Shown here piece after piece: positions 4,561 to 52,808 of a stretch of 64,000 nt of DNA. Position 1 is the stretch's first letter; each line of letters begins with the position of its first letter. The stretch spans positions 1 through 64,000 of IMG/VR virus record IMGVR_UViG_3300033153_004214; one strand, 5' to 3'. The notes under the pieces are model-generated. The model saw only the letters and a program-made list of their open reading frames with translations. It searched no databases and was not told the DNA's origin. The stretch is from a virus. Both the position numbers and the translations under genes were made by a program.

Positions 4561-4713
4561 GGACTTGGTGATTAAAAAGAGGCTTGCGGACGTATATTCT
4601 TGTAGCAGCACAAGGGGGACGGCATGGTTGGTTGCATGGGGATAGGCCGGTAATGGACCGGCGGCTCCATAGTGGGAGCTTACCCTGCAGCCCCTGTCGA
4701 AGGGAGTAGTAGC

Positions 4714-28415: not shown

Positions 28416-28635
28416 GCTGTCCATACCGGGGCAGTACGAGACGATCAACCCGAGCGTGAGTATCACTGCAGATGTTGGGGAGAATGAAGACCTCAGCACC
28501 GTGGTGGATGAACTCAAGATTCAGGTTGAAGCGGAGTTCTGGAGGCTGGCCTACACTGACTATGCCACCGCACTTCAGCGAGCCGCAGCAGGCACTCAGA
28601 ACTGGCTGGCTGCGAAGTTTCCTCGGCAACCGTAA
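28378..28635 (+). CDS. Small hypothetical protein (85 aa)
   Basis: ATG 28378 follows SD gggggacggga. Its stop overlaps the start of the DnaB-like gene. Confidence 0.4.
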   Translation: MKIRTVTVGASHKLSIPGQYETINPSVSITADVGENEDLSTVVDELKIQVEAEFWRLAYTDYATALQRAAAGTQNWLAAKFPRQP

Positions 28636-31382
28636 TGGAAGGATATCTTCACATGGGTGAGGTTCAGGATAATGCTGTCTATCCGTATGGTTTCGACTTC
28701 CAACACGCCCTGATGGCTATGGCTGTGCAGGACCCGGGGTTCCTCGCAAGCTATGAAGATATCATTGAACCAAGGTACTTTGAGTCTCCAGTCTTACAGA
28801 CGGTCAGTAAGATCATTCTTGGTTACTACAAGTCTTACGCAGAGCCGCCTGCACAGCAGACTTTGAATCAGTTGGTGTACGAACATGTCTCCGGCCTGCC
28901 CGCTAATATGCAGATGCAGATAGATCAGTTCTATCAGTTCGCGGCGAGTCTCTACACAACGGAGATTAGAAACAGTCAGTTTATCAAGGATCGGGCTGTT
29001 AAGTTTGCGCAGCGGCAGGCGTTCAAGCATGCTCTCATTCATGGTATAACCATTCTCAAACGGGATGGTGACATCGAGGACGCTCAAGACCTTGTTGATC
29101 GTGCGATGACCATTGGTATTCGTCGGGATATGGGTGACGATCTTTACGAGGTGATCGAGAGCCTTCCTCACAAGTGGGCGGAGATGGTCGGTGGTGCTGG
29201 GAAAATTCCAACGTGCTTTCCTATCCTGAACGAAGCCACCTATGGTGGGGTGCGTAAGGGTGAACTCTTCATCATTCAAGGCATTCCAAAGTTTGGGAAG
29301 TGTTTAGGTCCTGATGCTCGTGTATGGTCGCCCTACGGTGGTTATACTAGAATGGTTGATTTCCCCTCCCAAGGTTGGTCAGTTGGAGAAGTGGCTAACG
29401 GTACTGATGTGATTCCAATTTTGGCAAAGGCCGCTAACGGCAGAAAGAAAGTGTATGATGTCTATTTGCGTTCAGGCCGGGTGATACGACAAATAACAGG
29501 GAACCATCCTGTGCGTACTTGTGATGGATACACTCCAGTGAGTAAATTATCAAAGGGAGACGCGGTAGCTGCTCCTAATAGATTACCGCTTGAGGTTTCG
29601 CAGGCATGGGAGTACCCGGAGCTTGCTTATGCTTTGGGTGTTTTCTTGGGTGACGGTTGTTTGATGGCAGATAGCTCGATCATAAGTGCTGAAGAGGGTG
29701 TGGATGATGTACCTAATGCAGTGCTGTCAGTTTTGCCTGAAGAGTGGAGCATCGAGGTTAACAGGACAGGTAGCCATGTTCGCTTTGTGAACAAGCTAAG
29801 AAATGGTAAAAGGCCCTGTAGTAGACGTAATTTGCTTACTGAATGGTTGAGATCGTTAGGTGTGTTTGGGATGTCTGCTGCCGCTAAGCGGGTTCCAAAG
29901 ATAGTATGGCAGGGTGGTTGTGATGTTGTTCGCGGGGTGTTGGCTGGGTTGTGGGATACTGATGGTTGGGTGCAGTCAAAGGGAACTGGTTGCGCGGAGT
30001 ACTGTACTGTTTCTGATTACCTAGCGCACGATGTTCTTACGATGTTACACGTTCTTGGTATTTATGCTGTTGTGCGTAGGAATTATGCTGATAACGCTTG
30101 GTTAGTTCGTGTTACTGGGAGAGATAGCCTTAGACAGTTTGGAAAACAAATACGTTTGAGGTACAAGAAGAAGGCGGATAGGTTGCAAGCTATTCTAGCA
30201 AAACCGATTAAGCGATCTACCGAGCGTGGTTCGTACTGGCAACGGTTGCCAGTGCAGTATCGTCGATTTTTGGGGAGTCAGCAGCGGAGTAAATCGTGCC
30301 GGGTATCTAAGGATATGTTCAAGCAGCAGGTAGCTGATTCTTCACAACATAGCTTTGCCTTGTCGGTGTTTTGGGATGAAGTTGTCGATATTAAGCCTGT
30401 TGGTAGGATGCAGACGTATGATCTACAGGCTTCTAAAGAGTCACAATCTTTTGTAACTGAGGGTGTTGTGGTGCATAATTCAACCACTCTAATCAGTTTG
30501 GGTGGTTATGCTATTCGCTGTGGGTACAAAGTCCTTCATGTTACTATCGGTGACCTGAAGCAGTTTGACGTTGAGTTGAAGTACGCTACTTACCTCGCGC
30601 AGCAGAATATCAAGGAAATGATGTACGGTGGTGATGCGTATGCGTTTGCTCGGTTGAAGGATGCTCATATCAAACCGAACCAGCTTCGTATCAAGTACTT
30701 TAGTCCGTACTCGCTCAGCGTCCCCCAGCTTCGATCTTACATTTCTTGGTTGCGGACGAACTCGGGCTTCTTCCCTGATCTGTTGATACTGGACTATCCT
30801 GACAAGATGTACCGGAAGCACGAGGACTCTTACTCGGAGATGGGCAAAATCTACATGGAGATCAAGACCCTTCTCGATGACTTTGATATCGCTTGCTGGG
30901 CGGCGAGCCAGAGTAACAGGGGTGCAGCGGATGCAAAGGTGAATCGAGCCGCCAACGTTGCTGAGTCATGGGACAAGATCGCCAATGCTGACGGAATCAT
31001 TCCGTGTTCTCAAACTGACGAGGAACGAGCACAAGGCAAGGCTCGTCTCTATATTGAGATGGTTCGCTTTGGTATAGACCATTGGACACAGCCTGTTCAT
31101 ATCAATTACGGGATGAGTACAGTCTCCTCCGTGGGCAACATAGATGCCTATACCAATCTACCTGAGCAGTTAAAGGCAAAGGCGGCGGAGTTTTGTAACC
31201 ACTATTCGACGCAGCGAGTGGAGGTGGCAGCGCAACAACACCAGCAGATGCAGGCAGCGCAGGCGAGCCTTCCTGAGGGAACCTATGTTCGGGAGGATGG
31301 TTATTACGGTATGAACCGTTGGGATGGCCAGCGGTACACGAAGTATGTATGGGACGGTCAACAGTGGCACGCTACGAACTAA
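28635..31382 (+). CDS. DnaB/gp41-like replicative helicase, interrupted by an intein in the P-loop
   Basis: The extein Walker A reads IIQGIPKFGK|STTLISLG and Walker B reads LLILDYPD. There is a RecA-like C-terminal domain. ATG 28653 is an alternative start. Confidence 0.8.
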   Translation: MEGYLHMGEVQDNAVYPYGFDFQHALMAMAVQDPGFLASYEDIIEPRYFESPVLQTVSKIILGYYKSYAEPPAQQTLNQLVYEHVSGLPANMQMQIDQFYQFAASLYTTEIRNSQFIKDRAVKFAQRQAFKHALIHGITILKRDGDIEDAQDLVDRAMTIGIRRDMGDDLYEVIESLPHKWAEMVGGAGKIPTCFPILNEATYGGVRKGELFIIQGIPKFGKCLGPDARVWSPYGGYTRMVDFPSQGWSVGEVANGTDVIPILAKAANGRKKVYDVYLRSGRVIRQITGNHPVRTCDGYTPVSKLSKGDAVAAPNRLPLEVSQAWEYPELAYALGVFLGDGCLMADSSIISAEEGVDDVPNAVLSVLPEEWSIEVNRTGSHVRFVNKLRNGKRPCSRRNLLTEWLRSLGVFGMSAAAKRVPKIVWQGGCDVVRGVLAGLWDTDGWVQSKGTGCAEYCTVSDYLAHDVLTMLHVLGIYAVVRRNYADNAWLVRVTGRDSLRQFGKQIRLRYKKKADRLQAILAKPIKRSTERGSYWQRLPVQYRRFLGSQQRSKSCRVSKDMFKQQVADSSQHSFALSVFWDEVVDIKPVGRMQTYDLQASKESQSFVTEGVVVHNSTTLISLGGYAIRCGYKVLHVTIGDLKQFDVELKYATYLAQQNIKEMMYGGDAYAFARLKDAHIKPNQLRIKYFSPYSLSVPQLRSYISWLRTNSGFFPDLLILDYPDKMYRKHEDSYSEMGKIYMEIKTLLDDFDIACWAASQSNRGAADAKVNRAANVAESWDKIANADGIIPCSQTDEERAQGKARLYIEMVRFGIDHWTQPVHINYGMSTVSSVGNIDAYTNLPEQLKAKAAEFCNHYSTQRVEVAAQQHQQMQAAQASLPEGTYVREDGYYGMNRWDGQRYTKYVWDGQQWHATN
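29301..30479 (+). mobile_element. Intein (393 aa, with LAGLIDADG endonuclease) between the K and S of the DnaB-like Walker A motif
   Basis: Starts CLGPDARVWS, has block B ITGNHPV and LAGLIDADG motifs LAYALGVFLGDGCL and VLAGLWDTDGWV, and ends GVVVHN followed by +1 Ser. Confidence 0.85.
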
Positions 31383-33337: not shown

Positions 33338-33468
33338 GGTTCTCCGTGGGCCAGCCGCCCCTGAAGGGGCACAATAGAAGGAGGTGTCGTATGTCTCAGT
33401 TTCCCACCACATGCATATTTGACACCTCCAAGATATTAGGCTACCTTCATATAAGAATGGAGGTGGTT

Positions 33469-33987
33469 ATGTTTGAAATCTGGAAACCTGTGGTGGGGTT
33501 TGAGTCGTGGTATGTTGTTTCGTCCATGGGCCGTGTGAAGCGGATAGCCCCGGGAAAGGGAACTTACCCCGGTCGGATATTGAAGCTCTGCAAAACGAAT
33601 GCTGGTTATCTCAACGTTAGGTTGTGCGCTGGTAGAGGACGGGGTACTACTCAAGATGTTCATCGTTTGGTGTGCGCGGCTTTCATAGGGGCGTGTCCTG
33701 CAGGTGCAGAGGTTAATCATAAGGATGGGATTAAGACGAACAACCAGATTAGCAACCTTGAATATGTTACACGTTCTGTCAATCTGAAACACGCCTGCAG
33801 TATTGGCTTGTCAAATTACCGTGGCGAACGTAACGGCAATGCACGTCTGACAGAGCGTATTGTTAGACTTATCAGGCATGATCTTGCCAAAGGACACTTG
33901 CAGCGGCAGATAGCTGTCAGATATGGCATAGATCAATCTACCGTATCCCAGATTAAAACCCAGAAGAGGTGGTCACATGTCTCTTGA
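33469..33987 (+). CDS. HNH homing endonuclease (NUMOD4-like N-terminus, C-terminal HTH)
   Basis: Contains WKPVVGFESWYVVSSMGRVKRI, VHRLVCAAFIG..EVNHKDGIKTNNQISNLEYVT and the C-terminal IAVRYGIDQSTVSQIK. SD ggaggtgg precedes ATG 33469. Confidence 0.8.
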   Translation: MFEIWKPVVGFESWYVVSSMGRVKRIAPGKGTYPGRILKLCKTNAGYLNVRLCAGRGRGTTQDVHRLVCAAFIGACPAGAEVNHKDGIKTNNQISNLEYVTRSVNLKHACSIGLSNYRGERNGNARLTERIVRLIRHDLAKGHLQRQIAVRYGIDQSTVSQIKTQKRWSHVS

Positions 33988-36522: not shown

Positions 36523-36528
36523 AGATGA

Positions 36529-36564
36529 GGGGCGGTGGCTTCGGTCACCGCCCCTGTTTCTTTT
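36529..36564 (+). terminator. Rho-independent terminator
   Basis: Hairpin GGGGCGGTG-gcttcggt-CACCGCCCC followed by tgtttctttt, 7 nt after the stop codon. Confidence 0.75.
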
Positions 36565-36683
36565 GGTGGGGTGCCACGGGTGCGGGTCCGATTCGCTTCG
36601 TGAAGGACATTGGTCTCTACGCTTTCAGCAGGGGGCGTGCGACGTGATGGTGTTTCGGATTAAGAAACGAAAGGCGTGGGCGC

Positions 36684-37130
36684 ATGTCTGACACTCCTGC
36701 GGTTGAATTGCCGTCCATTTCAAAGGCCATCGCTAGTGGCTACGGGTGGCAACCGGTGGTAGGCTATGAGGGTATATACGAGGTTAGTTGGTGCGGTTGT
36801 GTGCGGAGGATTGCAGGTGGTAGGGGTACTCGGGTCGATGTTCATCAAGGTAGATGTATCAGGTCTTTCCCCGGTGCTGGTAAGTCGAAGCTCTATCGTC
36901 GGGTTCAGTTGTCCCACAAGGGTGTCAGAAAGACCATTCCTGTTCATATCATGGTTGCTGAAGCATGGCTTGGGCCTCGGCCTGAGGATGAGTTTGGGAG
37001 GTATGAGGTTCACCATCGGGACAATGACATCTCGAACAACTGTGTGTTTAACTTGGAGTACATCTCGAAGGAAGAGAATATGAAAGAGGCATGGCACAGA
37101 TACATCACAAAGGGTGATCCGAGTGGGTAA
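36684..37130 (+). CDS. HNH homing endonuclease (second copy, NUMOD4-like N-terminus)
   Basis: Contains WQPVVGYEGIYEVSWCGCVRRI, VHIMVAEAWLG and YEVHHRDNDISNNCVFNLEYIS. Confidence 0.8.
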   Translation: MSDTPAVELPSISKAIASGYGWQPVVGYEGIYEVSWCGCVRRIAGGRGTRVDVHQGRCIRSFPGAGKSKLYRRVQLSHKGVRKTIPVHIMVAEAWLGPRPEDEFGRYEVHHRDNDISNNCVFNLEYISKEENMKEAWHRYITKGDPSG

Positions 37131-37147
37131 ACGGCACTTGAGAAAAT

Positions 37148-37162
37148 TTGCATTTTTTGCAA
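37148..37162. promoter_or_regulatory. Palindromic operator candidate TTGCA-ttttt-TGCAA
   Basis: Perfect inverted repeat, 8 nt upstream of the -35 element at 37171. Confidence 0.5.
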
Positions 37163-37170
37163 ATTTGTTC

Positions 37171-37198
37171 TTGACTCATACGGGCCATGCGGTATGCT
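37171..37198 (+). promoter_or_regulatory. Sigma70-type promoter TTGACT-16-TATGCT
   Basis: It lies in the 102-nt gap before the gene at 37233, in a TTTGTTCTTGACTCATACGGG context. Confidence 0.6.
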
Positions 37199-37232
37199 AT
37201 CTGTAATGGCAGTCGTATGAGAGGAGACGGCA

Positions 37233-38687
37233 ATGGGTTGGTTCGAGGTCTCGAAGTCAGGTCTCAAGCAGTTGATGGATGGAAAGGACAAGAGCTACGT
37301 ATTGCGCGAGCTTATCCAGAACGCATGGGATGAACCGGGTGTCACCACGGTGCATGTAGAGATCGAGCCGATTCCGGGTAGGCCCGCTGCCACCGTCAGG
37401 GTCGAGGATGACGCCCCTGAAGGTTTCCATGACATTTCGCATGCTTATACGATGTATGGCAATACTCGGAAACGGAAGGACCCCTCGAAGCGGGGTCGTT
37501 TCAATCTGGGTGAGAAGCAGGTCCTCGCACTGGCCCGGGCGGCAACCATTCAGACTACGACTGGTACCATCTTTTTCAAAGAGAATGGTGATCGTAGTCG
37601 TGGTCGGCAGAAGACCGAGAGTGGTTCCATCTTCACTGCCGACATTCCGATGATCCGGGCTGAGATTGACGATGCCATTAAGGCAGCGAAGGCGTTCATC
37701 CCTCCTGAGGGTATGGCCACCACGGTCAACGGTTTTTTGCTCACGAAGCCCAAGCTGGTGGCGTCAGTCTCGGCGATCCTCCTTACTGAGTTCGAGAACT
37801 CAGATGGCCAGTATCGCTCGACTCGTCGCAAGACCATGGTAGATGTCTACCAGCCCCGCGAGGGTGAGAAGCCCATGATCTTCGAGATGGGCATTCCGAT
37901 CATCGAGCTTGAGGGTGGCGACTGCTACCACTACGATATCCAGCAGCGCGTGCCGATGACCACCGACCGGGACAACGTTCGCCCGAGCTTCCTGCAGGAT
38001 GTCAGGGCCGAGGTCCTCAACAAGGTCGCGGATAAGCTTTCCGACGAGCAGGCCCGGGAGCGGTGGGTGACTGAGGGCATCGAGGACGACCGCATCCAGC
38101 CTAAGGCTGTCAAGTCGGTCGTGACCAAGCGGTTTGGCTCGAAGGTCGTCACGATGGACCCCAGTGACCCCAACGCCAATGATGAGGCCATCTCCAAGGG
38201 GTTCACGGTTGTGCCCGGCGGTGCGCTTTCCAAGAGCGCGTGGGGCAATGTCAAGGAAGCCTCGGCCATCCCGTCATCGTCCAGTCTGTTCGGCAAGGTC
38301 TCGGTTGGCGCTACCCCGATCCCTGAAAGCAAGTGGACCCCCGAGATGCGCCGGGTTGTCAAGCTGACTCGGCGCGTGGCGAAGGTGTTGGAAGAAGATC
38401 AGCCCTTCATCGAGATCGTCAGGTCGAAGGCTGACGGTATGGCTTATTGGAGTGGTTGCACGATCACCTTCAACCTGACTCGGCTCGGTCGCAGGTGGTT
38501 CAGGGTCGAGAACACTGAGGATCAGATTCGCATCATCGTTCACGAGTTGGCGCACCGCTATGGCCACCACGTCGAGTATTCGTACCATCAGGCGCTCTGT
38601 CGGTTCGCGTCCAAGTTGGCTCTCGCAAGCCCGGGTGCTGTGACCCGTGGCATTACCAGTCACATGAAGCAGAAGGCGATGGTGTAA
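37233..38687 (+). CDS. GHKL (Bergerat-fold) ATPase-like protein with a C-terminal HExxH motif
   Basis: Has an N-box LRELIQNAWDE, a G1-like VRVEDDAPEGF, a G2-like RGRFNLGEKQV, and the C-terminal IIVHELAHRYGHH. Confidence 0.55.
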   Translation: MGWFEVSKSGLKQLMDGKDKSYVLRELIQNAWDEPGVTTVHVEIEPIPGRPAATVRVEDDAPEGFHDISHAYTMYGNTRKRKDPSKRGRFNLGEKQVLALARAATIQTTTGTIFFKENGDRSRGRQKTESGSIFTADIPMIRAEIDDAIKAAKAFIPPEGMATTVNGFLLTKPKLVASVSAILLTEFENSDGQYRSTRRKTMVDVYQPREGEKPMIFEMGIPIIELEGGDCYHYDIQQRVPMTTDRDNVRPSFLQDVRAEVLNKVADKLSDEQARERWVTEGIEDDRIQPKAVKSVVTKRFGSKVVTMDPSDPNANDEAISKGFTVVPGGALSKSAWGNVKEASAIPSSSSLFGKVSVGATPIPESKWTPEMRRVVKLTRRVAKVLEEDQPFIEIVRSKADGMAYWSGCTITFNLTRLGRRWFRVENTEDQIRIIVHELAHRYGHHVEYSYHQALCRFASKLALASPGAVTRGITSHMKQKAMV

Positions 38688-38917
38688 TGATGCTGGAGAA
38701 GGATGCCACTTCGGGCACGAAGCTTCACGCCCTGCTCATGTCCTGTCTGCTTGAGCGTCCCTTCGAGGAGACCTTGGGCAACATGGCAGGACAGTCCGGG
38801 GAGTGGTGGGACAAGAAGGCTGATGAGATGATTGGTATGCTGGGAGAAGCGGTCGTCGAAGGTATCTCTCGGCAGGATAGCATCGTTTCCCCTGAGAGGA
38901 GAAGGTTCAATGACTGA
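38687..38917 (+). CDS. Small hypothetical protein (76 aa)
   Basis: The ATG overlaps the upstream TAA. This is consistent with + strand operon packing. Confidence 0.35.
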   Translation: MMLEKDATSGTKLHALLMSCLLERPFEETLGNMAGQSGEWWDKKADEMIGMLGEAVVEGISRQDSIVSPERRRFND

Positions 38918-39146
38918 TTGGGAACCCCGGGATTCAGACATTGAGTGGGTGTGCAATCTCATCCGCATTCTCAAGGACGGGGGCGTGTGGGTTGCGCCTA
39001 TCATGGGTTTCTTCAATGTGGACAAGCAGGCTAAGACATTGACCATGACGCTCAAAACTCCTTCGCATGACGCGGAGATGTTCGAGCGTACCGTCAAGTC
39101 TTTCAAGGCGATTGGGTACGAAGTTATTGATAAGACGGGGGAGTAG
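38910..39146 (+). CDS. Small hypothetical protein (78 aa)
   Basis: SD aggaga precedes ATG 38910 (MTDWEPRDSDIEW...). Confidence 0.4.
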   Translation: MTDWEPRDSDIEWVCNLIRILKDGGVWVAPIMGFFNVDKQAKTLTMTLKTPSHDAEMFERTVKSFKAIGYEVIDKTGE

Positions 39147-39148
39147 TC

Positions 39149-39751
39149 ATGTCGAAGACCGCATACGTTTCCAAGAGGTTTCGCAAGGCCACGTTGGCAA
39201 TCATCGCGGACGCCAATGCCATCCTCACGGAGTACAAGGCGTTGGGCTATGACCTGACCCTTCGGCAATTGTACTACAAGTGCATCGCCCGGGACCTCTT
39301 TCCTGAGGAGTGGATCGATGAGAAGTACAACATCAAGCACGGCCTCGCGCCTGACACGAAGAACACCATCAAGAACTACAAGCGTTTCGGGAAGACCGTC
39401 AGCGAGGGTCGGATGGCTGGGCTGCTCGACTGGAGTCAACTCGTGGACCGGACGCGGCGGCTTTCCGGGCTTCGCCAGTACAGCAACCCTGAGAGCGCAG
39501 TGAACTTGCTGTCGCAGATATACCACATCGACATGTGGGCCAACCAGCCTTGTTACGTGGAAGCGTGAGTTGAGAAGGATGCGATGGTCGATATCCTGCG
39601 GCAGGAAGCGCATTCTCACGAGGCTGGAGTTCACATCATCCACCTCAGTGACCATGACCCTTCAGGGATTGACATGGTCGAGTTCTACTGTGATCCTCTT
39701 ACAAGCGACGAAGGCGATGGCGATGATAATCCGTGGATCAAGGAGGAGTAG
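39149..39751 (+). pseudogene. Spo11/Topo VI subunit A-like (5Y-CAP + Toprim) gene interrupted by an in-frame TGA at 39566-39568
   Basis: It has a 5Y-CAP-like LTLRQLYYKCIA. After the TGA the same frame continues VEKDAMVDIL...VHIIHLSDHDPSGIDM (Toprim E and DxD motifs) to TAG 39749-39751. The Toprim domain looks short or truncated. Confidence 0.5.
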
Positions 39752-39752
39752 T

Positions 39753-40238
39753 ATGGGGGACAAGAATCCTCACATCGAAGTTTCGGTCCCGGGGCAGCGT
39801 AAGGATTTCGAGAAGTGGATAGCTGAGCGGGGCGGTGTGCAGGTCTGGTCGAACGCTGGCCTGAGTAATCCGGGGGCATGCCTTGTGTTCACTCCGGCGA
39901 CCACTGCGGACGGAAAGCAGTATCCGAAGCCTCACTGGTCAGTGATACGAGGTCCTGTGGTCGAGGACATTGATTCCTTCCGGTTTGTTGTCAAGAATGT
40001 TGAGGTGGATCGTTTCAAGGTGAAGACGGCCCGGGGTCCTCAGGAGCTTCAGGTCAAGCTCACCAAAGAGTCCACCGACAGGGTGCGCAACCGTTGTAAA
40101 GCGGCCAAGGACAGATTGCAAAGGTCTGTCTACTACGAGTTCGATTATACGAGTCGGGAATGCATGATTTCCGTCCCGATCTTTGAGGGGGAGGATGAGG
40201 ACGGCATTGTGAAAGGGGTCGCACCTTGCACCACATGA
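39753..40238 (+). CDS. Hypothetical protein (161 aa)
   Basis: SD aaggaggag precedes ATG 39753 (MGDKNPHIEV...). The N-terminal 61 codons of the listed ORF 39570 are not supported. Confidence 0.5.
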   Translation: MGDKNPHIEVSVPGQRKDFEKWIAERGGVQVWSNAGLSNPGACLVFTPATTADGKQYPKPHWSVIRGPVVEDIDSFRFVVKNVEVDRFKVKTARGPQELQVKLTKESTDRVRNRCKAAKDRLQRSVYYEFDYTSRECMISVPIFEGEDEDGIVKGVAPCTT

Positions 40239-40636
40239 ACGACCGTTACCGAAGAGCATTGCTTCCCGAAGATGGCATGCCTGCCACGTCCCGACGAAAC
40301 GCAGAGTCGTTGGTCAAGATGCTCAACAAGCCTAATCATCTTGATCTGATCTTCAATGAGGAGCAAGAGCCTGAGGTCGTAGCCATGTGGACTTGGCCGG
40401 GCCGTGATCCCTTCGTGATGACCTTCAAGGGATTTGATTGGCAGGTTCACGGCTCCAAGAAAATGGCGCTCGATGCTTTCTTGTTTTTGATTGGTGCGGA
40501 CGACAGGAGGATCACGGATAGGATCATCCACCATCGTCCTGCTAACGAGGAGACTTTGTCCGTCATTAGGACAGGGAACTCATGGTTTACTGCGAGGGCA
40601 CTTGCTTCTGTGTATGAGCGTCTGCCAGAGGTCTGA
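40235..40636 (+). CDS. Hypothetical protein (133 aa)
   Basis: ATGA overlap with the upstream stop. No motif was recognised. Confidence 0.45.
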   Translation: MNDRYRRALLPEDGMPATSRRNAESLVKMLNKPNHLDLIFNEEQEPEVVAMWTWPGRDPFVMTFKGFDWQVHGSKKMALDAFLFLIGADDRRITDRIIHHRPANEETLSVIRTGNSWFTARALASVYERLPEV

Positions 40637-40653
40637 TTTATACTGGAAAAGTG

Positions 40654-40668
40654 TTGCAATTTTTGCAA
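40654..40668. promoter_or_regulatory. Palindromic operator candidate TTGCA-atttt-TGCAA
   Basis: Perfect inverted repeat and the third copy of the motif. Here it lies 45 nt upstream of the -35 element. Confidence 0.45.
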
Positions 40669-40671
40669 CGA

Positions 40672-40708
40672 AAATTTGGCCCAAATTTGCCTCGATTCGA
40701 GGCATTTT
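40672..40708 (+). other. Second palindrome AAATTTGG-c-CCAAATTT plus a small hairpin GCCTCG-att-CGAGGC followed by ATTTT
   Basis: Read directly from the sequence. It lies between the operator copy and the promoter at 40714, and could be a weak terminator or a regulator site. Confidence 0.35.
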
Positions 40709-40713
40709 GGTCC

Positions 40714-40742
40714 TTGACACAAAAATTTTTTCCGGCTAGAGT
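40714..40742 (+). promoter_or_regulatory. Sigma70-type promoter TTGACA-17-TAGAGT
   Basis: It lies in the 126-nt gap before the gene at 40763, in a TTTTGGTCCTTGACA context. Confidence 0.6.
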
Positions 40743-40762
40743 AGAACACTAGCGGGGGACAA

Positions 40763-41767
40763 ATGCCGAGACTTTCAGCCTCAATCGTGCGGAGATTCTC
40801 TTCGATGGTCGAGCTAGTCCATGTCGATCATGTTCAGCTTAACCTAGCCATGGTCATTAACCGTGAGCTACTACTAGGCGAACTTCCTGAGATTGCCAAA
40901 CGTCTTGGTCGGTATCATGTATCTGTTATTCCAGAGAAACGAAGACTGGTCTTACTTCGGTATAAGGAGCGCATGTCTGTCGCATTGGGTGAGTGCTGCC
41001 TGCCGGGTACGTTCGTTGGGTCGCTTGTGCTTCCAAAGGCTAATCGACCAACGTTTCTTGAACGGATGCAACAATACCGTGACTACTTTCGTAAGGCTGT
41101 TACCAAGCTGAAAAAGTCATGGGCCGAGTTGACTGCGGAAGCTAAGCATGTCGCAAATGATCTTCTTCATATCCAGTATGCGAAGACCAAACCAGTCCAC
41201 AGACATCCTGACCTTAATCGAATAGCGCATAGGTTCTTGGGTCAGTTTGCAGAGCGTGTCGCAGAAGGTCCTGCGGTCGTCTTGCCTACGTGGACATTCT
41301 TTCAGGTACCCATGGCTTCTTCTAATAATCATCAGTTGGTTGGCTATCAGTCTCTTGACATCCGATTACGTCAGCATCTTTGCGAATCTCATGCTTCAGC
41401 AATTGACTACGTCAAGCAACAACTATCTTACGCTGTTGGTCTCGACCTAACAGCGTATGCTGCTCCTAAGGACTTTAGGAATAGGTACGTCACCGCTTTT
41501 ACCGGCTTCCAGATCGATCTTTGGTGGCAGTGGTTCGAGGTGTTCTGTGATGAGTACATGATGGATGTCCTTTCTTCTCTTGGTGGGAACTGGGAGGAAT
41601 TGCGAAAGCACGCTCGCAGCAAAAAACAACTTGTGCCCGGTGGGCGTTTGGCTATACTGAAGGACATTACACAGAGACTTCGGGGTTCCTGTGTGGAGGC
41701 GTTGCAAAAGCTGGCATCGCATCCAGCGGTTGGCTCACCTCCGATCACTAGCGGTGGGGTGAAGTAG
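40763..41767 (+). CDS. Hypothetical protein (334 aa)
   Basis: SD gggggac precedes ATG 40763. It is the first gene after the promoter. No motif was recognised. Confidence 0.5.
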   Translation: MPRLSASIVRRFSSMVELVHVDHVQLNLAMVINRELLLGELPEIAKRLGRYHVSVIPEKRRLVLLRYKERMSVALGECCLPGTFVGSLVLPKANRPTFLERMQQYRDYFRKAVTKLKKSWAELTAEAKHVANDLLHIQYAKTKPVHRHPDLNRIAHRFLGQFAERVAEGPAVVLPTWTFFQVPMASSNNHQLVGYQSLDIRLRQHLCESHASAIDYVKQQLSYAVGLDLTAYAAPKDFRNRYVTAFTGFQIDLWWQWFEVFCDEYMMDVLSSLGGNWEELRKHARSKKQLVPGGRLAILKDITQRLRGSCVEALQKLASHPAVGSPPITSGGVK

Positions 41768-44527
41768 ATGCCTTATTGTATGGATTATGGGTGCCCCCTA
41801 TCGGGGAAGCCCGGGATCAAGTCGCCGGGCCTCGATCCTGCAGGCTCGGCCAATCCTCTTATTTATCTCGTAGCATCAGCACCCGGCTTCCAAGAAGACC
41901 AAATGGGTGTACCCTTCTGCGGTGAGTCCGGGCAACAAACCATAGCGGCATTCAAGCAGCGGATTGCTGTAGAACATCTTCGGGTGAACTATGTTGTGCG
42001 CTGTGCTCCTTACAAGGAGAAGAGCCAGCGCATCGAGAAGCCATCCAAGAAAGCGATCTTCGCCTGCTGCCCGAGCCTGCTTGCTGACATTGAAGCAACC
42101 AAACCAAAGATCGTTATAGCCATAGGTGATGTTGCCAAGGCGGCACTATTCCATTCGACCGTGGCCCTGTCACTCATGCGAGGGTCACCAAGGGAACTAC
42201 AAGCCGGGAGCTACACAGTTCCTGCGATGGCGATCTATGACTATGCGTACCTTCGGCAGCGGGACTGGCCCCGAGATGTAGTGCTTCAGTGGGTTGGTGA
42301 TATCACCCGGGCTGTCAACATCGCTACTGGTTCGGAACAGATGCAGGTGCATGAGAAGGATTATCGAATACTTTCCAGTCTCGCGGAGATCAGGGACTAC
42401 ATGGCCTTCCTGCAGGACGGTGTTGACCGGGGCATGTTCCCGTATATCGTGACAGACATCGAGTCGAGTGGCCTGAATCCGTGGGACCCGAAGACTGAGC
42501 TACTCCTGCTCGGCATCACGCATGCGCCGCATCAATCAGTTATCGTTCCGGTCGATCACTTTGAGTCTCCGTTGCGAGGACAACGGAAGGAAATTGGTGA
42601 TCTACTACGACCTCTGGGTGCAATGCCCCTTGCCAACCAGAATATGAAGTTCGACTATCAGTGGTACCGCCATGAGCTTGACATCATGATGATCAACATT
42701 GTCTTCGACACATACTTCGCCCACCATGCCCTGTTCCAGAGCACCCGCGCTAATGACATTGAGTCTATCGGTGCCATGTACTTGAATGAGCCTGCGTGGG
42801 AATATCGAGTCAAGGAGTCTGTTGAACGTATCCGGTCGCAGATCAAGATGGCAGTTTCAGCATGGAAGAAACGATACAAGGCTGAGTACAAAAAGGGTCA
42901 AGTCGATCCTGAGACCCAGAGAGCATTAGACCTTTGGACAGCGTGGCAGGTCGCTTCTAAACAAGGCAAGGGCTACGGGGTTGTTCCAATAGGTGACCTA
43001 GCCCACTATTGTTGCATCGACTGTGATGTGACCTACCGGGCGGTTCCTGTTCTCCAGAAGATGCTTCAGGAAGCAAATCTCCTTGATATGTTCCAGCGTA
43101 TGTTCATGACGAATATGGTTCCTTGGTGTGATATCCAGTATGAGGGTATCGCTATCGATGGTAACGCGGTGGCGGCGCACAACGAAGCGTTCCCTCAGAA
43201 GCTTGAGGGGATTAAGCATGACTTTAATAAGCTGACCTTTGTTCAAGCGACGGCTGAGTTGATCGGCAAGCCCGATGTCAACATGAACTCACCTAAGCAG
43301 GTGTCCACTCTGATGTATGATGTGATGAAGTGTGCGCCACCAAAGGACAAGAGAAAGAATGCGAGGACGACAGACAATGAGCATCTCAAGATGTTGGAGG
43401 GTGCTGCGAAGCGAAAGGATACCAAGCAATCGAGAGAAGTTGCGAAGGTCCTTTCAACGATCATGGACTTCAGGACCCAGAGCAAGGTTTTCTCCAGCTA
43501 CGTTATGGGCATGGTGAAGTTTGCTGTTGATGGTCGTATCAACCCGAACTGGAATATTGCTGGAACAGACACAGGGAGGGCCTCAGCAAAAGAACCACCG
43601 ATCCACTCACAACCTAAAGACCTTCGGGACATCGTTACCTCCCGGTACGCTGATATTGGCGGCGTCATTTTTTACATGGACCAGTCGCAGGTTGAGGTCA
43701 GGGTCTTTGCGTCAGTGGCCAACGACCCTTTCTTGATCGAGACATACAATACCCCGGGTGCGGATGTCCACCGCATGTTGGCATCTATGCTCTTCTCGAA
43801 ACCGCCAGAGCAGGTAACCGACGTGGAACGTCAGATTGCGAAGACCTGTGTGTTTGCTTCGCTGTATGGGGGCGGTCCTTCAAGGATCGCTGGGCAGACA
43901 GGTATGGCTCTAGACGAAGCCAAGGTTGTTCACGCTCGGTTCACATCGATTATTACTCTGAATCAGTTCAAGGACAGGCTTTGGAGTGAACTACTCCGGT
44001 GCGGCTACGTTACGACCGCGTTTGGTCGTATTCGTATCATTCCGATCCCTGCGAGTGAACAGAAGCAGTATCACGCTCGGAATCAATCGATTAATACACC
44101 GATCCAGTCAGCAGCGAGTGACATTACATTGGAATCGATCACTCGTTTGTGGTATCGGATGAAGTATGCTGGCATGCAGTCGAAGATTATCATTTGGCAT
44201 CACGACGCTATCGTTTGGGATGTCTACCCCGGTGAGCTTCCCACCATTCTTGAAATGGCTCAGGTAGCGATGGTCACCGAGCCAATGCAGATGTACGACT
44301 GGCTCCGGGTTCCTCTTAAGATCGAAGGTGGTTTCGGTGTCAACTGGCGTGACGATCTTGAGGTTACAGAGCGTAACGGTACTCAGGTCAGTGTTGATGG
44401 CAAGCGGAAGAACTATGAGAAGCTTGTCGCCTCTCCGTTTGCTCGGTTGAATCCTTCAGTGATCACTGAGGAGTATGAGAAGAATGGTACTCCTATGGTC
44501 AAGGCTGTTTTCAATCTAGCTTCCTAG
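41768..44527 (+). CDS. Family A DNA polymerase with 3'-5' exonuclease domain and an N-terminal family-4 UDG-like domain
   Basis: The UDG-like motif is LVASAPGFQEDQMGVPFCGESGQ. The exonuclease motif is IVTDIESSGL. The polymerase motifs are MDQSQVEVRVFA, RQIAKTCVFASLYGG and IIWHHDAIVWDV. Confidence 0.85.
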   Translation: MPYCMDYGCPLSGKPGIKSPGLDPAGSANPLIYLVASAPGFQEDQMGVPFCGESGQQTIAAFKQRIAVEHLRVNYVVRCAPYKEKSQRIEKPSKKAIFACCPSLLADIEATKPKIVIAIGDVAKAALFHSTVALSLMRGSPRELQAGSYTVPAMAIYDYAYLRQRDWPRDVVLQWVGDITRAVNIATGSEQMQVHEKDYRILSSLAEIRDYMAFLQDGVDRGMFPYIVTDIESSGLNPWDPKTELLLLGITHAPHQSVIVPVDHFESPLRGQRKEIGDLLRPLGAMPLANQNMKFDYQWYRHELDIMMINIVFDTYFAHHALFQSTRANDIESIGAMYLNEPAWEYRVKESVERIRSQIKMAVSAWKKRYKAEYKKGQVDPETQRALDLWTAWQVASKQGKGYGVVPIGDLAHYCCIDCDVTYRAVPVLQKMLQEANLLDMFQRMFMTNMVPWCDIQYEGIAIDGNAVAAHNEAFPQKLEGIKHDFNKLTFVQATAELIGKPDVNMNSPKQVSTLMYDVMKCAPPKDKRKNARTTDNEHLKMLEGAAKRKDTKQSREVAKVLSTIMDFRTQSKVFSSYVMGMVKFAVDGRINPNWNIAGTDTGRASAKEPPIHSQPKDLRDIVTSRYADIGGVIFYMDQSQVEVRVFASVANDPFLIETYNTPGADVHRMLASMLFSKPPEQVTDVERQIAKTCVFASLYGGGPSRIAGQTGMALDEAKVVHARFTSIITLNQFKDRLWSELLRCGYVTTAFGRIRIIPIPASEQKQYHARNQSINTPIQSAASDITLESITRLWYRMKYAGMQSKIIIWHHDAIVWDVYPGELPTILEMAQVAMVTEPMQMYDWLRVPLKIEGGFGVNWRDDLEVTERNGTQVSVDGKRKNYEKLVASPFARLNPSVITEEYEKNGTPMVKAVFNLAS

Positions 44528-49564: not shown

Positions 49565-50628
49565 TGAAAGAGGTCATCTTCTCCGATCTGCATATTCCAC
49601 CGACAGTGTCTAAGGATGACACGATCATGGAGTCGGCTCAATGGGTCTACAACCTTGTAGTGGAGACAGGTGCCAAGGTGGTTGTCTATCTTGGCGATCT
49701 CTATCACAACCCATCGAAGTCGCTCCTCCCTGCGAATTTGCGGGCACGCTATGTTCTTGATCTCTTCAAGGCGCTGGCTGGGTACGGGGTGACTGTGATA
49801 TGGATGCTAGGCAATCATGACCTCTTCTCTGATGAGTACAATGCACTGCAGCTTTTTGATGCACCAGTTCCCAATTTCCATATCGTTACTCAGAACACAG
49901 ACTTTCTGATTGATGGCGTGACTCATGTTTGTTTGCCTTATACCATTGAGTACGATAAGAAGCGAGATGGTCTTGATACTCGCTACCTGACGAAGATGCG
50001 GACGAAGGCACCGGGGTTTGCTGCTGTCTTTGCGCATCTTCCTATTGAAGGTATCACGCTTGGCGGCTCCCGAGATCACGGGGTGGTACCCCGTGATCTT
50101 GCTATTTTCGACATCATTTTCGAGGGGCACTACCACCAGCCCACCATGTTTGAGCACGAGGGGCTGGGGTTGCGATCACCCTTCTGGCTCGCCGGGACAC
50201 TTTGTCCTCAGGATTTCAAAGATAAGGGCTTCTGGCATGGAGCACTCGTGTGGGATACCGACTCAAACGAGGTCACCCCGGTGCCAAACCCCCACAGGCA
50301 TGTCTACCTTATTGGTTCATCAGAAGAAGTCAGTGCCGAAGCCAACGCCCCCGGGATCGGATGGACAGAGGACCTCGTCAAGCGGTCGCACATTCGATTC
50401 ACTGAGGAGGTCGGGGAAGTCGAGGTCAACGAGTGGCACGACCGTTACGCTAACGTCGAGGTGCGTCCTCGCAAGGAGGCCCGGCAGGCATCGGATCGAG
50501 CACCGTTTGCTCTCGAAGGCGACCCCCGACAAGACCTCGTGCGATGGATAGATGAAGCCGGGTTGGGTGCGGAGAAGGAGATGTTGTTGGCTCGTGGTGG
50601 CCCGCTGTTGGAGGGACGCAAGGTATGA
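49564..50628 (+). CDS. Mre11/SbcD-like (gp47-like) metallophosphoesterase nuclease
   Basis: Contains IFSDLHIPP, VVYLGDLYHN, MLGNHD, VFAHLPIEG and FEGHYHQP. Confidence 0.8.
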   Translation: MKEVIFSDLHIPPTVSKDDTIMESAQWVYNLVVETGAKVVVYLGDLYHNPSKSLLPANLRARYVLDLFKALAGYGVTVIWMLGNHDLFSDEYNALQLFDAPVPNFHIVTQNTDFLIDGVTHVCLPYTIEYDKKRDGLDTRYLTKMRTKAPGFAAVFAHLPIEGITLGGSRDHGVVPRDLAIFDIIFEGHYHQPTMFEHEGLGLRSPFWLAGTLCPQDFKDKGFWHGALVWDTDSNEVTPVPNPHRHVYLIGSSEEVSAEANAPGIGWTEDLVKRSHIRFTEEVGEVEVNEWHDRYANVEVRPRKEARQASDRAPFALEGDPRQDLVRWIDEAGLGAEKEMLLARGGPLLEGRKV

Positions 50629-52808
50629 TTCTTAGAATTGAAGCAGAGAACTTTAGGTCGTTCGACAAGCTGGCCTATACGGTCAACAACGTCGGTCTTG
50701 CGTCCATTGAAGGCTACTGGAATCAGGACCCGATGAGGTCTAACGGATGTGGCAAGTGCCTACCAGCAGACACCAAATTGAAGCATGCAATCACTGGTGA
50801 ATATGATACCATTGAACATTGGTATACCCGTGTAGCCGCCGGTGAGACTCTGTTTATTTGGGGTCTAAATGCTGATTGGACATTGTCTCCTACGAAGGTC
50901 ACTTCTGTATTTTCCACTGGTTCAAAAGAGCTAGTTGAGATTGAGTTTACTGATGGGCGTAGTTTGCGGGTAAGTACAACGCATCCTATAATGTCAGAGT
51001 TCGGGTGCAAGAAGGCAAAGGACTTCAAGATTGGAGATATGTGTGCGGGGCCACGCCACCTTTATGTAGATGCTGTTTCGGTGGCTGGATCAGATTTAGT
51101 ATGGCGCCCTATCAGTAGAATTACTCCCATAACGGGTAGGCATTCTACGTTTGATATCTCTGTGGATAACGAAACACATTTGTACGCTTTGGACAGTGTG
51201 ATAACCCATAACTCGTCCTTCTTGACGGAGCTACTGACATGGGCGATCTTCGGTGAAACGACCGAGGGGCAGACCGCATCGGACAAGGTCCGTGACGTGG
51301 TCAAGACCGGAACGAAGTCTTGCAAGGTCACGGTCACGTTGCCATTCATTAAGTGGACCCGAAGCCAGCGGGCAGGAAACAAATCCAACAAGATCGAGAT
51401 TGAGGGGCACGAGTACCACAAGTTGGCGGATGCCGAGGCCCACCTTCTACAACTATTCCCACCGAAGAAGGTCTTTTCCTCGACACTCGTACTTGGGCAG
51501 GGGATCGGCAACAGGCTGACCGGTTGGAAGCCAGCCGAGCGCACCAAGACCCTGTCAGACCTTTTTGGTCTGGGTATCTTCGAGCAGGCCCGTGAGGGCG
51601 TTAGGAAGCTCATACGCGGCTGGGAGTCCTCGAAGGTGGGTGCCAATGCCAAGTTGCAGACTATCTCGCAGCAGAAGGCTCAAGTAGCTGCTCAGGCTGG
51701 GGCGACTCTGGCTCCTGAAGAGTTGACGGCGCTTCAGAATGAGTATGCTCGACTTCGAGATGAGAAGGTGGTTCTTGTTGATGCTCGGCAAACAGCCGAT
51801 GCCTTGTTCACTGTGGCGAACAATACATGGTCAATGGCGATAGCGAATCGCAGCACTGCTATGTCTCGGGCTACTGCATTACAGAATAGTGTAGACGGTA
51901 TTGATAGTATGGAGGTTTGTGATCGATGCCAACGTAAGATGACGAAGGCTGCGAAAGATGCGCTTACGCAGAGCATGAAGGAGGAGTTGGCGACAATACA
52001 GAACTCGTATCCCAACTTGAAGTCGGCAGTGGAGGCCGCAGAGCGGGAGAAGCAGAGTGTGTCCTCTCAGCGAGAAGAGATTCTTGGTAAGATCGAACAG
52101 AAGGATCACAGGCTTAACGAAATCAATGGTCGGATCGCACTCCACAACCAAGCCGCCCAGACGCTTAACATGTTTGATGAACAGGAGGCGGCGGCTCGGC
52201 AGGAGTTGGCGACTGCTGACGCTGAGATTGGTTACTATCAGAAGCTTGATGAAGCCTTTGGTCCCAACGGCATTCCTCTCCGTAAGATGGAGAGCGTGAT
52301 CTCAGTCTTCAACATTGCGCTTGCCCGCATCTGTGAGGGCGTTTGGGAGTCGGAAATCTTCGTTCAGTTGACCACGGAACGAACACTCAAGAGTGGCGGC
52401 AAGAAGAATGAGATCGACATCATCGTTGAAGGTGCGAACGGCCCAACCTACTCTGCCTGTTCCCCGGGTGAACGACGCCGTCTCGACCTGACTCTTCAAC
52501 TTGCCTTGCGCGAGGTCCTCTTGTCTTCATGGAAGACCATGATGCCATTACTGGTCTGCGATGATGTGGTGGACGTTCTGGATGCTCGGGCCAAGGTTCA
52601 GTTGTATGAGAACTATCTGGTACCCCTGTCAGAGAACAATGTCATTTTCGTGGTCAGTCCCGAGTCTACCTTGTCTCGTGATGTCCCACGAGTGTATATT
52701 CATAGAGATGGAGCCGGGTCGAAGGTGATGCTCAATGAGGCAACAAACATCTTGCAGGTGACCGGGCTGGATGTCATGCAGTTGGAGGGTGCGGCTGGTG
52801 CCCAGTAA
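50625..52808 (+). CDS. Rad50/SbcC-like (gp46-like) ATPase, interrupted by a mini-intein in the P-loop
   Basis: The extein Walker A reads RSNGCGK|SSFLTELL. It has a long coiled coil with a CDRC zinc hook-like motif, the signature CSPGERRRLDL and the Walker B LLVCDDV. Confidence 0.8.
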   Translation: MILRIEAENFRSFDKLAYTVNNVGLASIEGYWNQDPMRSNGCGKCLPADTKLKHAITGEYDTIEHWYTRVAAGETLFIWGLNADWTLSPTKVTSVFSTGSKELVEIEFTDGRSLRVSTTHPIMSEFGCKKAKDFKIGDMCAGPRHLYVDAVSVAGSDLVWRPISRITPITGRHSTFDISVDNETHLYALDSVITHNSSFLTELLTWAIFGETTEGQTASDKVRDVVKTGTKSCKVTVTLPFIKWTRSQRAGNKSNKIEIEGHEYHKLADAEAHLLQLFPPKKVFSSTLVLGQGIGNRLTGWKPAERTKTLSDLFGLGIFEQAREGVRKLIRGWESSKVGANAKLQTISQQKAQVAAQAGATLAPEELTALQNEYARLRDEKVVLVDARQTADALFTVANNTWSMAIANRSTAMSRATALQNSVDGIDSMEVCDRCQRKMTKAAKDALTQSMKEELATIQNSYPNLKSAVEAAEREKQSVSSQREEILGKIEQKDHRLNEINGRIALHNQAAQTLNMFDEQEAAARQELATADAEIGYYQKLDEAFGPNGIPLRKMESVISVFNIALARICEGVWESEIFVQLTTERTLKSGGKKNEIDIIVEGANGPTYSACSPGERRRLDLTLQLALREVLLSSWKTMMPLLVCDDVVDVLDARAKVQLYENYLVPLSENNVIFVVSPESTLSRDVPRVYIHRDGAGSKVMLNEATNILQVTGLDVMQLEGAAGAQ
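50757..51212 (+). mobile_element. Mini-intein (152 aa, no endonuclease domain) between the K and S of the Rad50-like Walker A motif
   Basis: Starts CLPADTKLKHA, has block B LRVSTTHPIM, and ends HLYALDSVITHN followed by +1 Ser. Confidence 0.8.

Follow-up and report, generated by a model that had tools for sequence, protein, structure and literature searches.

The genes described here lie in a window of 64,000 nt that comprises positions 1-64,000 of a metagenomic viral contig of 145,011 bp (IMG/VR record IMGVR_UViG_3300033153_004214). Six plus-strand genes at 37233-40636 encode products of 484, 76, 78, 139+55, 161, and 136 aa; the first (gene 1) carries motifs of a GHKL ATPase and the fourth (gene 4) those of a 5Y-CAP plus Toprim protein. 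The original prediction, made from the sequence, took the two for a split or reduced type IIB topoisomerase-like module or for a new nuclease/ATPase system. Our analysis argues for another interpretation, which we consider probable: the genes form one unit in the early/replication module of a ~145-kb uncultured phage, in which a dead Mini-A gene and an intact gene for a GHKL-zincin protein are unrelated accessory neighbors and do not encode the subunits of a single enzyme. The Mini-A proteins of phages stand alone, combine 5Y-CAP with Toprim, and are remote relatives of Topo VI-A/Spo11. We find no support for a type IIB topoisomerase module; a decayed member of a known family beside an unrelated, uncharacterized ATPase-protease accounts for most of the finding. 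All motifs quoted in the prediction (ELIQNAWDE, the G-box-like motifs, HELAH..HH, RQLYY, VEKDA, and DHDPSG) are present where it placed them, and the motifs of both genes exceed chance, as seen in their invariance within the families and in a match to PHROG 6247.

Gene 4 runs from 39149 to 39568, with an in-frame TGA at 39566-39568, and continues from 39569 to 39751, ending with TAG at 39749-39751. Its features are:

39149-39751, plus strand: Mini-A (Topo VI-A-like) pseudogene, TGA-interrupted, with 200 codons of 350 remaining
39263-39277, plus strand: RQLYY (residues 39-43), the conserved Arg and catalytic-Tyr dipeptide of 5Y-CAP, retained
39566-39568, plus strand: TGA nonsense codon, derived from TGG (Trp) by a G to A change at 39568
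39595-39605, plus strand: junction of a 90-bp in-frame deletion (after 39594), one remaining copy of CCTGCGGCAGG
39650-39667, plus strand: DHDPSG, the Toprim DxD metal-binding motif, retained 3' of the stop and between the two deletions
39667-39677, plus strand: junction of a 360-bp in-frame deletion (after 39666), one remaining copy of GATTGACATGG

The read-through translation of gene 4 matches PHROG 6247 'DNA topoisomerase' with E = 2e-39, covering part of the 303-position profile. Relatives identified with tblastn occur in 75 GenBank phage records, where full-length genes encode ~293-298 aa; the homolog of Pseudomonas phage NP1, a named Mini-A representative (Takahashi et al., 2019, NAR Genom Bioinform, PMC7671362), shares 31.7% identity with gene 4 (E = 5e-23, tblastn). 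Mini-A proteins are viral and are marked by a short 5Y-CAP domain with RxxY/F-Y, a Toprim domain with Glu and DxDxxG, and a C-terminal xWELDAL (T2BI) box, and they lack the N-terminal 5Y-CAP segment that binds Top6B (PMC7671362). In gene 4 just 38 residues precede RQLYY, placing the catalytic Tyr at residue 43, and R39, Y42, and Y43 are invariant in the Mini-A alignment (A2). Intact 350-aa orthologs are present in a metagenome protein collection: P0121 (85% identity), P0122 (69%), and P0242. All three contain SWELDAL, and the intact orthologs also bear R39/Y42/Y43, E142, D198-x-D200-P-S-G, and a short N-terminus. The intact orthologs of this lineage differ from other Mini-A proteins in being longer (350 vs ~300 aa) and in having an acidic C-terminal tail. 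Pfam gave nothing significant for gene 4, and the Mini-A profile had no match among PDB sequences at E <= 1, so that motifs, PHROG, and the published family are what ties gene 4 to Topo VI-A. Judged by these similarities, gene 4 descends, as originally proposed, from a 5Y-CAP plus Toprim protein of the Topo VI-A/Spo11 lineage and belongs to Mini-A, a family mentioned in that proposal. Our literature search found no functional study of Mini-A after 2019.

Homology and the 5Y-CAP features place gene 4 in Mini-A, but an intact Toprim domain and the WELDAL box are missing. The DNA alignment of the window with the P0121 locus (L009) is exact but for seven substitutions and two gaps. The 90-bp deletion lies between two copies of an 11-bp direct repeat, CCTGCGGCAGG, in L009 and removes 30 residues, including the conserved RGY, between the Toprim Glu and DxD; the 360-bp deletion lies between two copies of another 11-bp direct repeat, GATTGACATGG, and removes 120 C-terminal residues, including the Mini-A signature SWELDAL. 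Together they strip the Toprim-domain core and the WELDAL box from the gene. VEKDA, which contains the Toprim Glu, is retained but lies downstream of the TGA, a position at which intact relatives have Trp. When full-length homologs were compared with 38600-41000 by tblastn, the missing C-terminus was absent from any frame beyond 39149-39751, arguing that the lost sequence was deleted, not frameshifted. With the WELDAL box lost and the Toprim domain disrupted, gene 4 is a Mini-A pseudogene and not a functional member of the family.

The decay that had been suspected for gene 4 is apparent next to a sister contig (L171, 144,964 bp) that has the same gene order and an intact 350-aa Mini-A gene. 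L171 matches the window at 99.6% identity across the 9.6 kb that precede the first deletion and at 98.8% across the 10 kb that follow the second. Intact Mini-A copies of L171 and of the more distant L010 differ with a ratio of nonsynonymous to synonymous substitution rates (dN/dS) of 0.22, which indicates purifying selection. The window, from these comparisons, holds a very recent, triple-hit loss-of-function allele. The deletions may have arisen by replication slippage or by microhomology-mediated recombination at the 11-bp repeats. The product of gene 4 would be at most a 139-aa winged-helix fragment unable to cleave DNA, and Mini-A is probably dispensable for this phage, its loss being tolerated or selected for.

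It is highly improbable, in our view, that gene 4 is still alive, either because its TGA is read through or recoded to give a working 200-residue product or because the lesions are artifacts of assembly or sequencing. Since neither deletion shifts the frame and one transition accounts for the stop, a 200-aa read-through is formally possible, and the lesions are found on one contig only. However, TGA terminates 17 of the 51 open reading frames (ORFs) in the window and is therefore an ordinary stop in this genome; its reading as Trp (by code 4 or recoding), which the original prediction had used in a proposed check, is rejected on this ground, and 150 residues would be absent even on read-through. 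The deletions remove G166, Y167, S169, W263, E264, and D266, which are invariant or nearly invariant in the family; a standard assembly would not be collapsed by repeats of just 11 bp, and a gene with three independent lesions has the typical look of a pseudogene.

Two further observations concern the integrity of Mini-A genes. In the intact gene of L009, perfect 11-bp repeat pairs occupy 2180-2190/2270-2280 and 2342-2352/2702-2712; their spacings of 90 and 360 bp are both multiples of three, each pair mediated one deletion of the window strain, and the protein sequence of L010 does not conserve them. In the cultured Roseobacter phage RDJL Phi 1 (L003, 5001-5905) the match to Mini-A falls into two parts in different frames, and the annotation gives a 208-aa 'DNA topoisomerase' and an ORF on the opposite strand; in its sister phage RDJL Phi 2 the match is unbroken. 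The split match suggests a frameshift, a second independent disruption of Mini-A, or a sequencing error.

Gene 1 has the following features:

37233-38687, plus strand: gene 1 ('gpA'), 484 aa, intact
37308-37334, plus strand: GHKL N-box ELIQNAWDE (residues 26-34), aligned to ELIQNAEDA of sacsin
37407-37517, plus strand: ATP-lid motifs, G1-like DDAPEGF (residues 59-65) and G2-like RGRFNLGEK (residues 87-95)
38295-38684, plus strand: zincin-like metallopeptidase domain (residues 355-484), from the model and Foldseek
38541-38570, plus strand: HELAHRYGHH (residues 437-446), an HExxHxxxxH motif

The predicted layout is a sacsin/Hsp90-type GHKL domain, a region that aligns with the Hsp90 middle domain, a helical linker, and a C-terminal minimal zincin domain. 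More than 1300 homologs occur in phages and prophages, and the 120 best listed span 430-640 aa. The nearest relatives of gene 1 are in metagenome-assembled genomes (MAGs) of Planctomycetota; hosts of the family include Planctomycetota, Verrucomicrobiota, Acidobacteriota, Proteobacteria, Actinobacteria, and others. In a 29-member alignment E26, N30, and D33 of the N-box are invariant, as are D59, D60, G64, F65, R87, G88, R89, and G93; the G2-like lid aligns with KVGRFGIGF of sacsin. H437, E438, H441, and H446 do not vary in either of two sequence sets (29/29 and 19/19). Compared with a 93%-identical relative, gene 1 has a dN/dS of 0.12, indicative of purifying selection.

Pfam found nothing significant in the protein of the window; among 29 family members it detected HATPase_c in nine, HATPase_c_3 in six, and SACS in five (best E = 2.9e-6). 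NCBIfam NF047352, the sacsin N-terminal ATP-binding-like domain, matches gene 1 at E = 2e-4 and its relatives at down to 5e-9, all scores of the family being under the curated cut-off of 50 bits. When the family profile was compared with PDB sequences, sacsin (5v45) was the sole GHKL match and the others were metalloproteases, with the profile aligning to the active-site helices of zincins; Top6B was absent even at E <= 10. An AlphaFold2 (AF2) model of gene 1 has a predicted local distance difference test score (pLDDT) of 88. Its best Foldseek matches in the PDB are full-length Hsp90, TRAP1, and HtpG (E = 3e-11), followed by GyrB and MORC2/4, and Topo VI-B is absent from the top 50. The alignment to the N-terminal-plus-middle fragment of TRAP1 (4ivg, 5hph) extends over ~460-480 columns with a TM-score of ~0.39-0.40. 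Matches in BFVD are uncharacterized phage proteins and phage GHKL proteins (rIIA, phage topoisomerase II subunit). The Bergerat fold originally assigned to gene 1 is thus upheld by invariant motifs, by Pfam matches of the family, and by the structural similarity to Hsp90, TRAP1, GyrB, and MORC proteins.

Modeled alone, the C-terminal 130 residues of gene 1 reach an AF2 pLDDT of 92.7. Foldseek places jannalysin and selecase at the top (E = 0.02, probability 1.0, TM-score 0.47-0.58 overall), with the HtpX catalytic domain, Wss1, and SPRTN among the further matches, nearly all of which are zinc metallopeptidases. Like the minimal zincins (jannalysin/selecase/proabylysin; Wss1/SprT/SPRTN; HtpX), this part of gene 1 is a ~110-residue alpha/beta domain with an HExxH helix and a third His ligand; it differs in its HExxHxxxxH spacing and in being appended to a GHKL ATPase instead of being stand-alone or membrane-bound, and the similarity is marginal (TM-score ~0.5-0.58 at the E-value given). 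Sequence and Foldseek comparisons together identify in gene 1 a GHKL domain, a sacsin-like N-box and lid, and HExxH with the third ligand of zincins. As predicted from sequence and model, gene 1 encodes an intact, selectively maintained sacsin/Hsp90-type GHKL ATPase fused to a minimal zinc metallopeptidase. This is a new architecture built from two known folds; our search of the accessible literature found no account of a sacsin- or GHKL-zincin fusion in phages.

The likeness to sacsin and Hsp90 is closest in sequence over the N-terminal 110 residues (ELIQNAxD and the RGRFxxG lid) and in structure over the first ~350 residues, and gene 1 is predicted to use ATP-driven lid closure and N-terminal dimerization as they do. 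However, gene 1 is only ~10-12% identical to Hsp90 and lacks its C-terminal dimerization domain; it has none of the other domains of sacsin, is fused to a zincin domain, and is phage-encoded. Phage rIIA and Tiamat TmtA, which are phage or defense proteins, likewise begin with a GHKL domain and carry a C-terminal effector region that varies. Their matches to gene 1 are weak (rIIA by structure, TmtA by profile); beyond the GHKL core they have no significant sequence relation to gene 1, and sizes and C-terminal domains differ. Separately, a known defense system was considered and rejected, as PADLOC returned only weak matches to TmtA (in the GHKL region) and JetD (in the Toprim).

The two genes are not a conserved pair. 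Among 50,697 GenBank phage records, 75 have Mini-A and one has gene 1, and none of the 75 has both; the sole gene 1 record, from an uncultured phage of 485 kb, shows no Mini-A in the surrounding 20 kb. When the 80 IMG/VR Mini-A loci closest in similarity to that of the window were examined, two had gene 1 within 10 kb, a count on which tblastn and the family hidden Markov model agree. Conversely, Mini-A lies within 10 kb in 6/80 IMG/VR gene 1 loci and in 1/80 gene 1 loci from bacterial genomes (largely from MAGs of Planctomycetota, Verrucomicrobiota, Acidobacteriota, and others, where the loci presumably belong to prophages), giving 7/160 overall. The homologous pairs that the original prediction proposed to look for in related phages exist at a few loci (2/80, 7/160), but pairing is not general (0/75 in GenBank). 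The syntenic relative L010 carries Mini-A at 79% identity without gene 1 and without the adjacent HNH gene; its order is DUF932, an HTH gene, homologs of the 76-aa and 78-aa genes, Mini-A, further genes, and a UDG-PolA gene. The absence of both from L010 argues that HNH and gene 1 constitute an indel block in this lineage. In the window two genes separate gene 1 from Mini-A, and the two are never directly adjacent in any co-occurring locus. As a system, a new nuclease/ATPase is disfavored by the same data: co-occurrence is limited to a small minority of genomes, in none of which do the two stand adjacent and coupled.

Clustering of neighbors at 84 loci in 56 lineages revealed no conserved partner of gene 1 either, no neighbor exceeding ~7 to 9 of the 56: there is an SNF2 helicase in 7 lineages, DUF932 in ~9, a serine recombinase in 3, and Mini-A in ~4 to 5. 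Frequent apparent 'neighbors' in this clustering are antisense ORFs inside gene 1. Two candidates for a companion were rejected: the HNH endonuclease is found with gene 1 in this lineage alone, and the small intervening genes, considered as a conserved adaptor, include 76- and 78-aa genes with homologs in their own lineage only. At L022, L024, L028, and L093 the genes in between are homologs of one another, and these loci therefore count as a single synteny group.

Two side observations were made in these loci. The serine recombinase lies ~0.3-1.1 kb upstream of the gene 1 homolog in 18 to 19 loci from just 3 lineages (L052, L053, L059-L062, L070-L077, L016, L066), which places gene 1 at the edge of an integration module in those elements. 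In the clade with Mini-A just upstream, the gene 1 homolog is followed by a second ~480-aa gene (L022 9325-10782, L024 7241-8680, L028 11762-13207) that did not cluster with gene 1.

Several points weigh against reading the locus as two unrelated genes, one of them dead and the other an ATPase-protease. No GHKL or sacsin model scores the protein of the window above its curated cut-off, the assignment being drawn from family-level matches and predicted structure; the Foldseek E-values of the zincin domain (0.02) are marginal; and the three Mini-A lesions are known from a single assembled contig. Moreover, at loci with both gene 1 and Mini-A, the distance is usually no more than ~1.4 kb and is taken up by one to three small genes. 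After merging of synteny groups there are about four independent juxtapositions, in both gene orders, and the closeness exceeds that of random placement in a 20-kb window. We attribute this closeness, from counts that are not phylogenetically controlled, to the two genes residing in the same variable accessory slot of the replication module, and assign a low probability to a facultative functional link. A role of gene 1 as the missing partner of Mini-A in some phages, as an ATP-gating Mini-B or an adduct-removing protease, would account for the ~1.4-kb closeness in the ~four synteny groups; we hold even this restricted role to be highly unlikely.

One form of such a link makes gene 1 a non-canonical 'Mini-B', which with Mini-A would form a reduced two-subunit IIB topoisomerase or ATP-controlled DNA breaker that is in decay here. 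In its favor, the Bergerat fold of gene 1 looks competent and precedes a region aligning with the Hsp90 middle domain, gene 1 and Mini-A belong to one operon in this phage species, and the two lie within ~1.4 kb of each other in several other lineages; moreover, the Mini-A paper states that no Mini-B has been found so far and that it may be non-canonical (PMC7671362). We nevertheless find this proposal extremely doubtful. The partner is missing in 78/80 Mini-A loci, 153/160 gene 1 loci, and 75/75 GenBank Mini-A records; L010 keeps Mini-A under purifying selection without gene 1; the order of the two genes varies and they are nowhere contiguous. Gene 1 is nearest to sacsin/Hsp90, with no Topo VI-B in either search described above, and its protease domain is found in no topoisomerase B subunit.

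A comparison with Topo VI/VIII (Top6A plus Top6B) leads to the same result. The likeness consists of a 5Y-CAP/Toprim protein and a GHKL ATPase in one operon. In Topo VI/VIII, A and B genes are invariably tandem or fused; here they are two genes apart and their pairing is not conserved. A B subunit of Top6B type comprises an H2TH domain, a transducer with a switch lysine, and a C-terminal stalk in contact with the A subunit. The ATPase of gene 1 is of the sacsin/Hsp90 type, has no detected H2TH domain, and ends in a protease domain, and the A-like protein, as a Mini-A by sequence with its Tyr at 43, lacks the B-binding N-terminus.

The zincin domain raises a second possibility, in which gene 1 is a Wss1/SPRTN-like DNA-protein-crosslink protease, gated by a GHKL clamp, that removes adducts of Mini-A or of a host topoisomerase. 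Spo11 forms covalent 5'-phosphotyrosyl DNA adducts, and the proposal assumes the same for Mini-A. Structural matches include Wss1 (5xbn, TM-score 0.57-0.58) and SPRTN (6mdw), Pfam gives a weak SprT-like match in gene 1, DNA-clamping MORC-type GHKL proteins are among the structural matches, and gene 1 recurs near Mini-A and sits in replication modules. However, the zincins that match best, minigluzincins and HtpX, have no link to DNA; Pfam scans of the window protein and the family detected no DNA-binding domain; the similarity is entirely generic to small zincins; and the co-occurrence counts with Mini-A are as low as before. We consider a crosslink protease very unlikely.

We favor instead a model in which gene 1 acts alone, as an ATP-gated protease, by analogy with related GHKL proteins. 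ATP binding would close the lid and dimerize the N-terminal domains around a client, as in Hsp90, sacsin, or MORC; lid closure would present or unmask the C-terminal protease, which would then cut the client. The location in an early/replication module and the absence of partners favor a host protein as this client, and we infer that it would most likely be targeted early in infection for take-over or counter-defense.

Gene 4 and its intact orthologs share with known Mini-A proteins their homology, their phage origin and, in the orthologs, RxxYY, Toprim E/DxDxxG, SWELDAL, and a short N-terminus; gene 4 itself differs as a pseudogene with a nonsense codon and two deletions, devoid of WELDAL and the Toprim core. 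The unit in which it resides is bounded and filled by the following elements:

36528-36555, plus strand: terminator-like hairpin with a 12-bp stem, 9 G-C pairs, and a T-rich tail
36684-37130, plus strand: HNH homing-type endonuclease, 148 aa, NUMOD4 and HNH_3 (Pfam/PHROG)
37171-37198, plus strand: sigma-70-like promoter candidate, TTGACT, 16 nt, TATGCT, 9/12 match
38687-38917, plus strand: 76-aa gene, confined to this lineage
38910-39146, plus strand: 78-aa gene with ATG at 38910 (mechanical ORF from 38832), confined to this lineage
39753-40238, plus strand: 161-aa gene, confined to this lineage
40226-40636, plus strand: 136-aa gene, confined to this lineage
40688-40704, plus strand: terminator-like hairpin
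40714-40742, plus strand: promoter-like site, 10/12, directly after hairpin 40688-40704

Every gene of the window is on the plus strand. The hairpin at 36528-36555, a strong one, is the probable upstream edge of the unit, ending the transcript of the upstream HTH gene, and the hairpin-promoter pair at 40688-40742 is its probable downstream edge. The six genes that had been placed behind a promoter at 37171 are there, but the promoter candidate itself does not exceed shuffled sequence: the region contains 3 such sites vs 3.4 expected from shuffles, which leaves it plausible but unsupported. The HNH gene matches HNH_3 of Pfam (E = 3.7e-8) and PHROG 59 (E = 1.4e-26). The 76-aa gene has homologs in L004/L005, L009, and L010 only and no family match in Pfam, PHROG, NCBIfam, or PADLOC scans. 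Megablast of 36600-41800 against GenBank phages identified no near-identical cultured phage.

The replication module around the unit encodes an intein-interrupted DnaB-like helicase, a Toprim primase, two HNH endonucleases, a DUF932 protein, a family-A DNA polymerase with an N-terminal UDG-like domain, and RecA. The gene of the DnaB-like replicative helicase (915 aa, 28635-31382) is split by an intein with a LAGLIDADG homing endonuclease, and the large genes at 50625-52808 and 54785-57769 also bear intein-splicing or LAGLIDADG domains; with these and at least two HNH genes, the phage genome is heavily colonized by selfish elements. In the family-A polymerase (919 aa, 41768-44527) the UDG-superfamily domain (Pfam UDG, E = 6e-14) is followed by 3'-5' exonuclease and polymerase domains, a fusion kept in L010 and L171. 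HNH/NUMOD4 genes occupy 33346-33987 and 36684-37130 in the window, 4241-4837 and 7535-7981 in L171, and 4379-5008 in L004; the two copies of the window share 38% identity. Their number, position, and length (148, 198, 209, 213 aa) vary among near-identical genomes, which suggests active homing or turnover.

These results bear on both families. On this evidence the GHKL protein encoded by gene 1 is not a general partner of Mini-A and does not supply the Mini-B asked for in the Mini-A paper, and annotation of such loci as a 'phage type IIB topoisomerase' can be avoided. Near-identical genomes that differ by a triple-hit knock-out of Mini-A are a natural experiment; they indicate that Mini-A is dispensable or sometimes selected against, and the window and L171 constitute an isogenic pair, usable if the host can be cultured. 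The remaining novelty is the GHKL-zincin (ATPase-protease) family. Uniform and selectively maintained, this family would correspond, on a GHKL basis, to AAA+ proteases like FtsH, and gene 1 is a candidate phage take-over or counter-defense factor.

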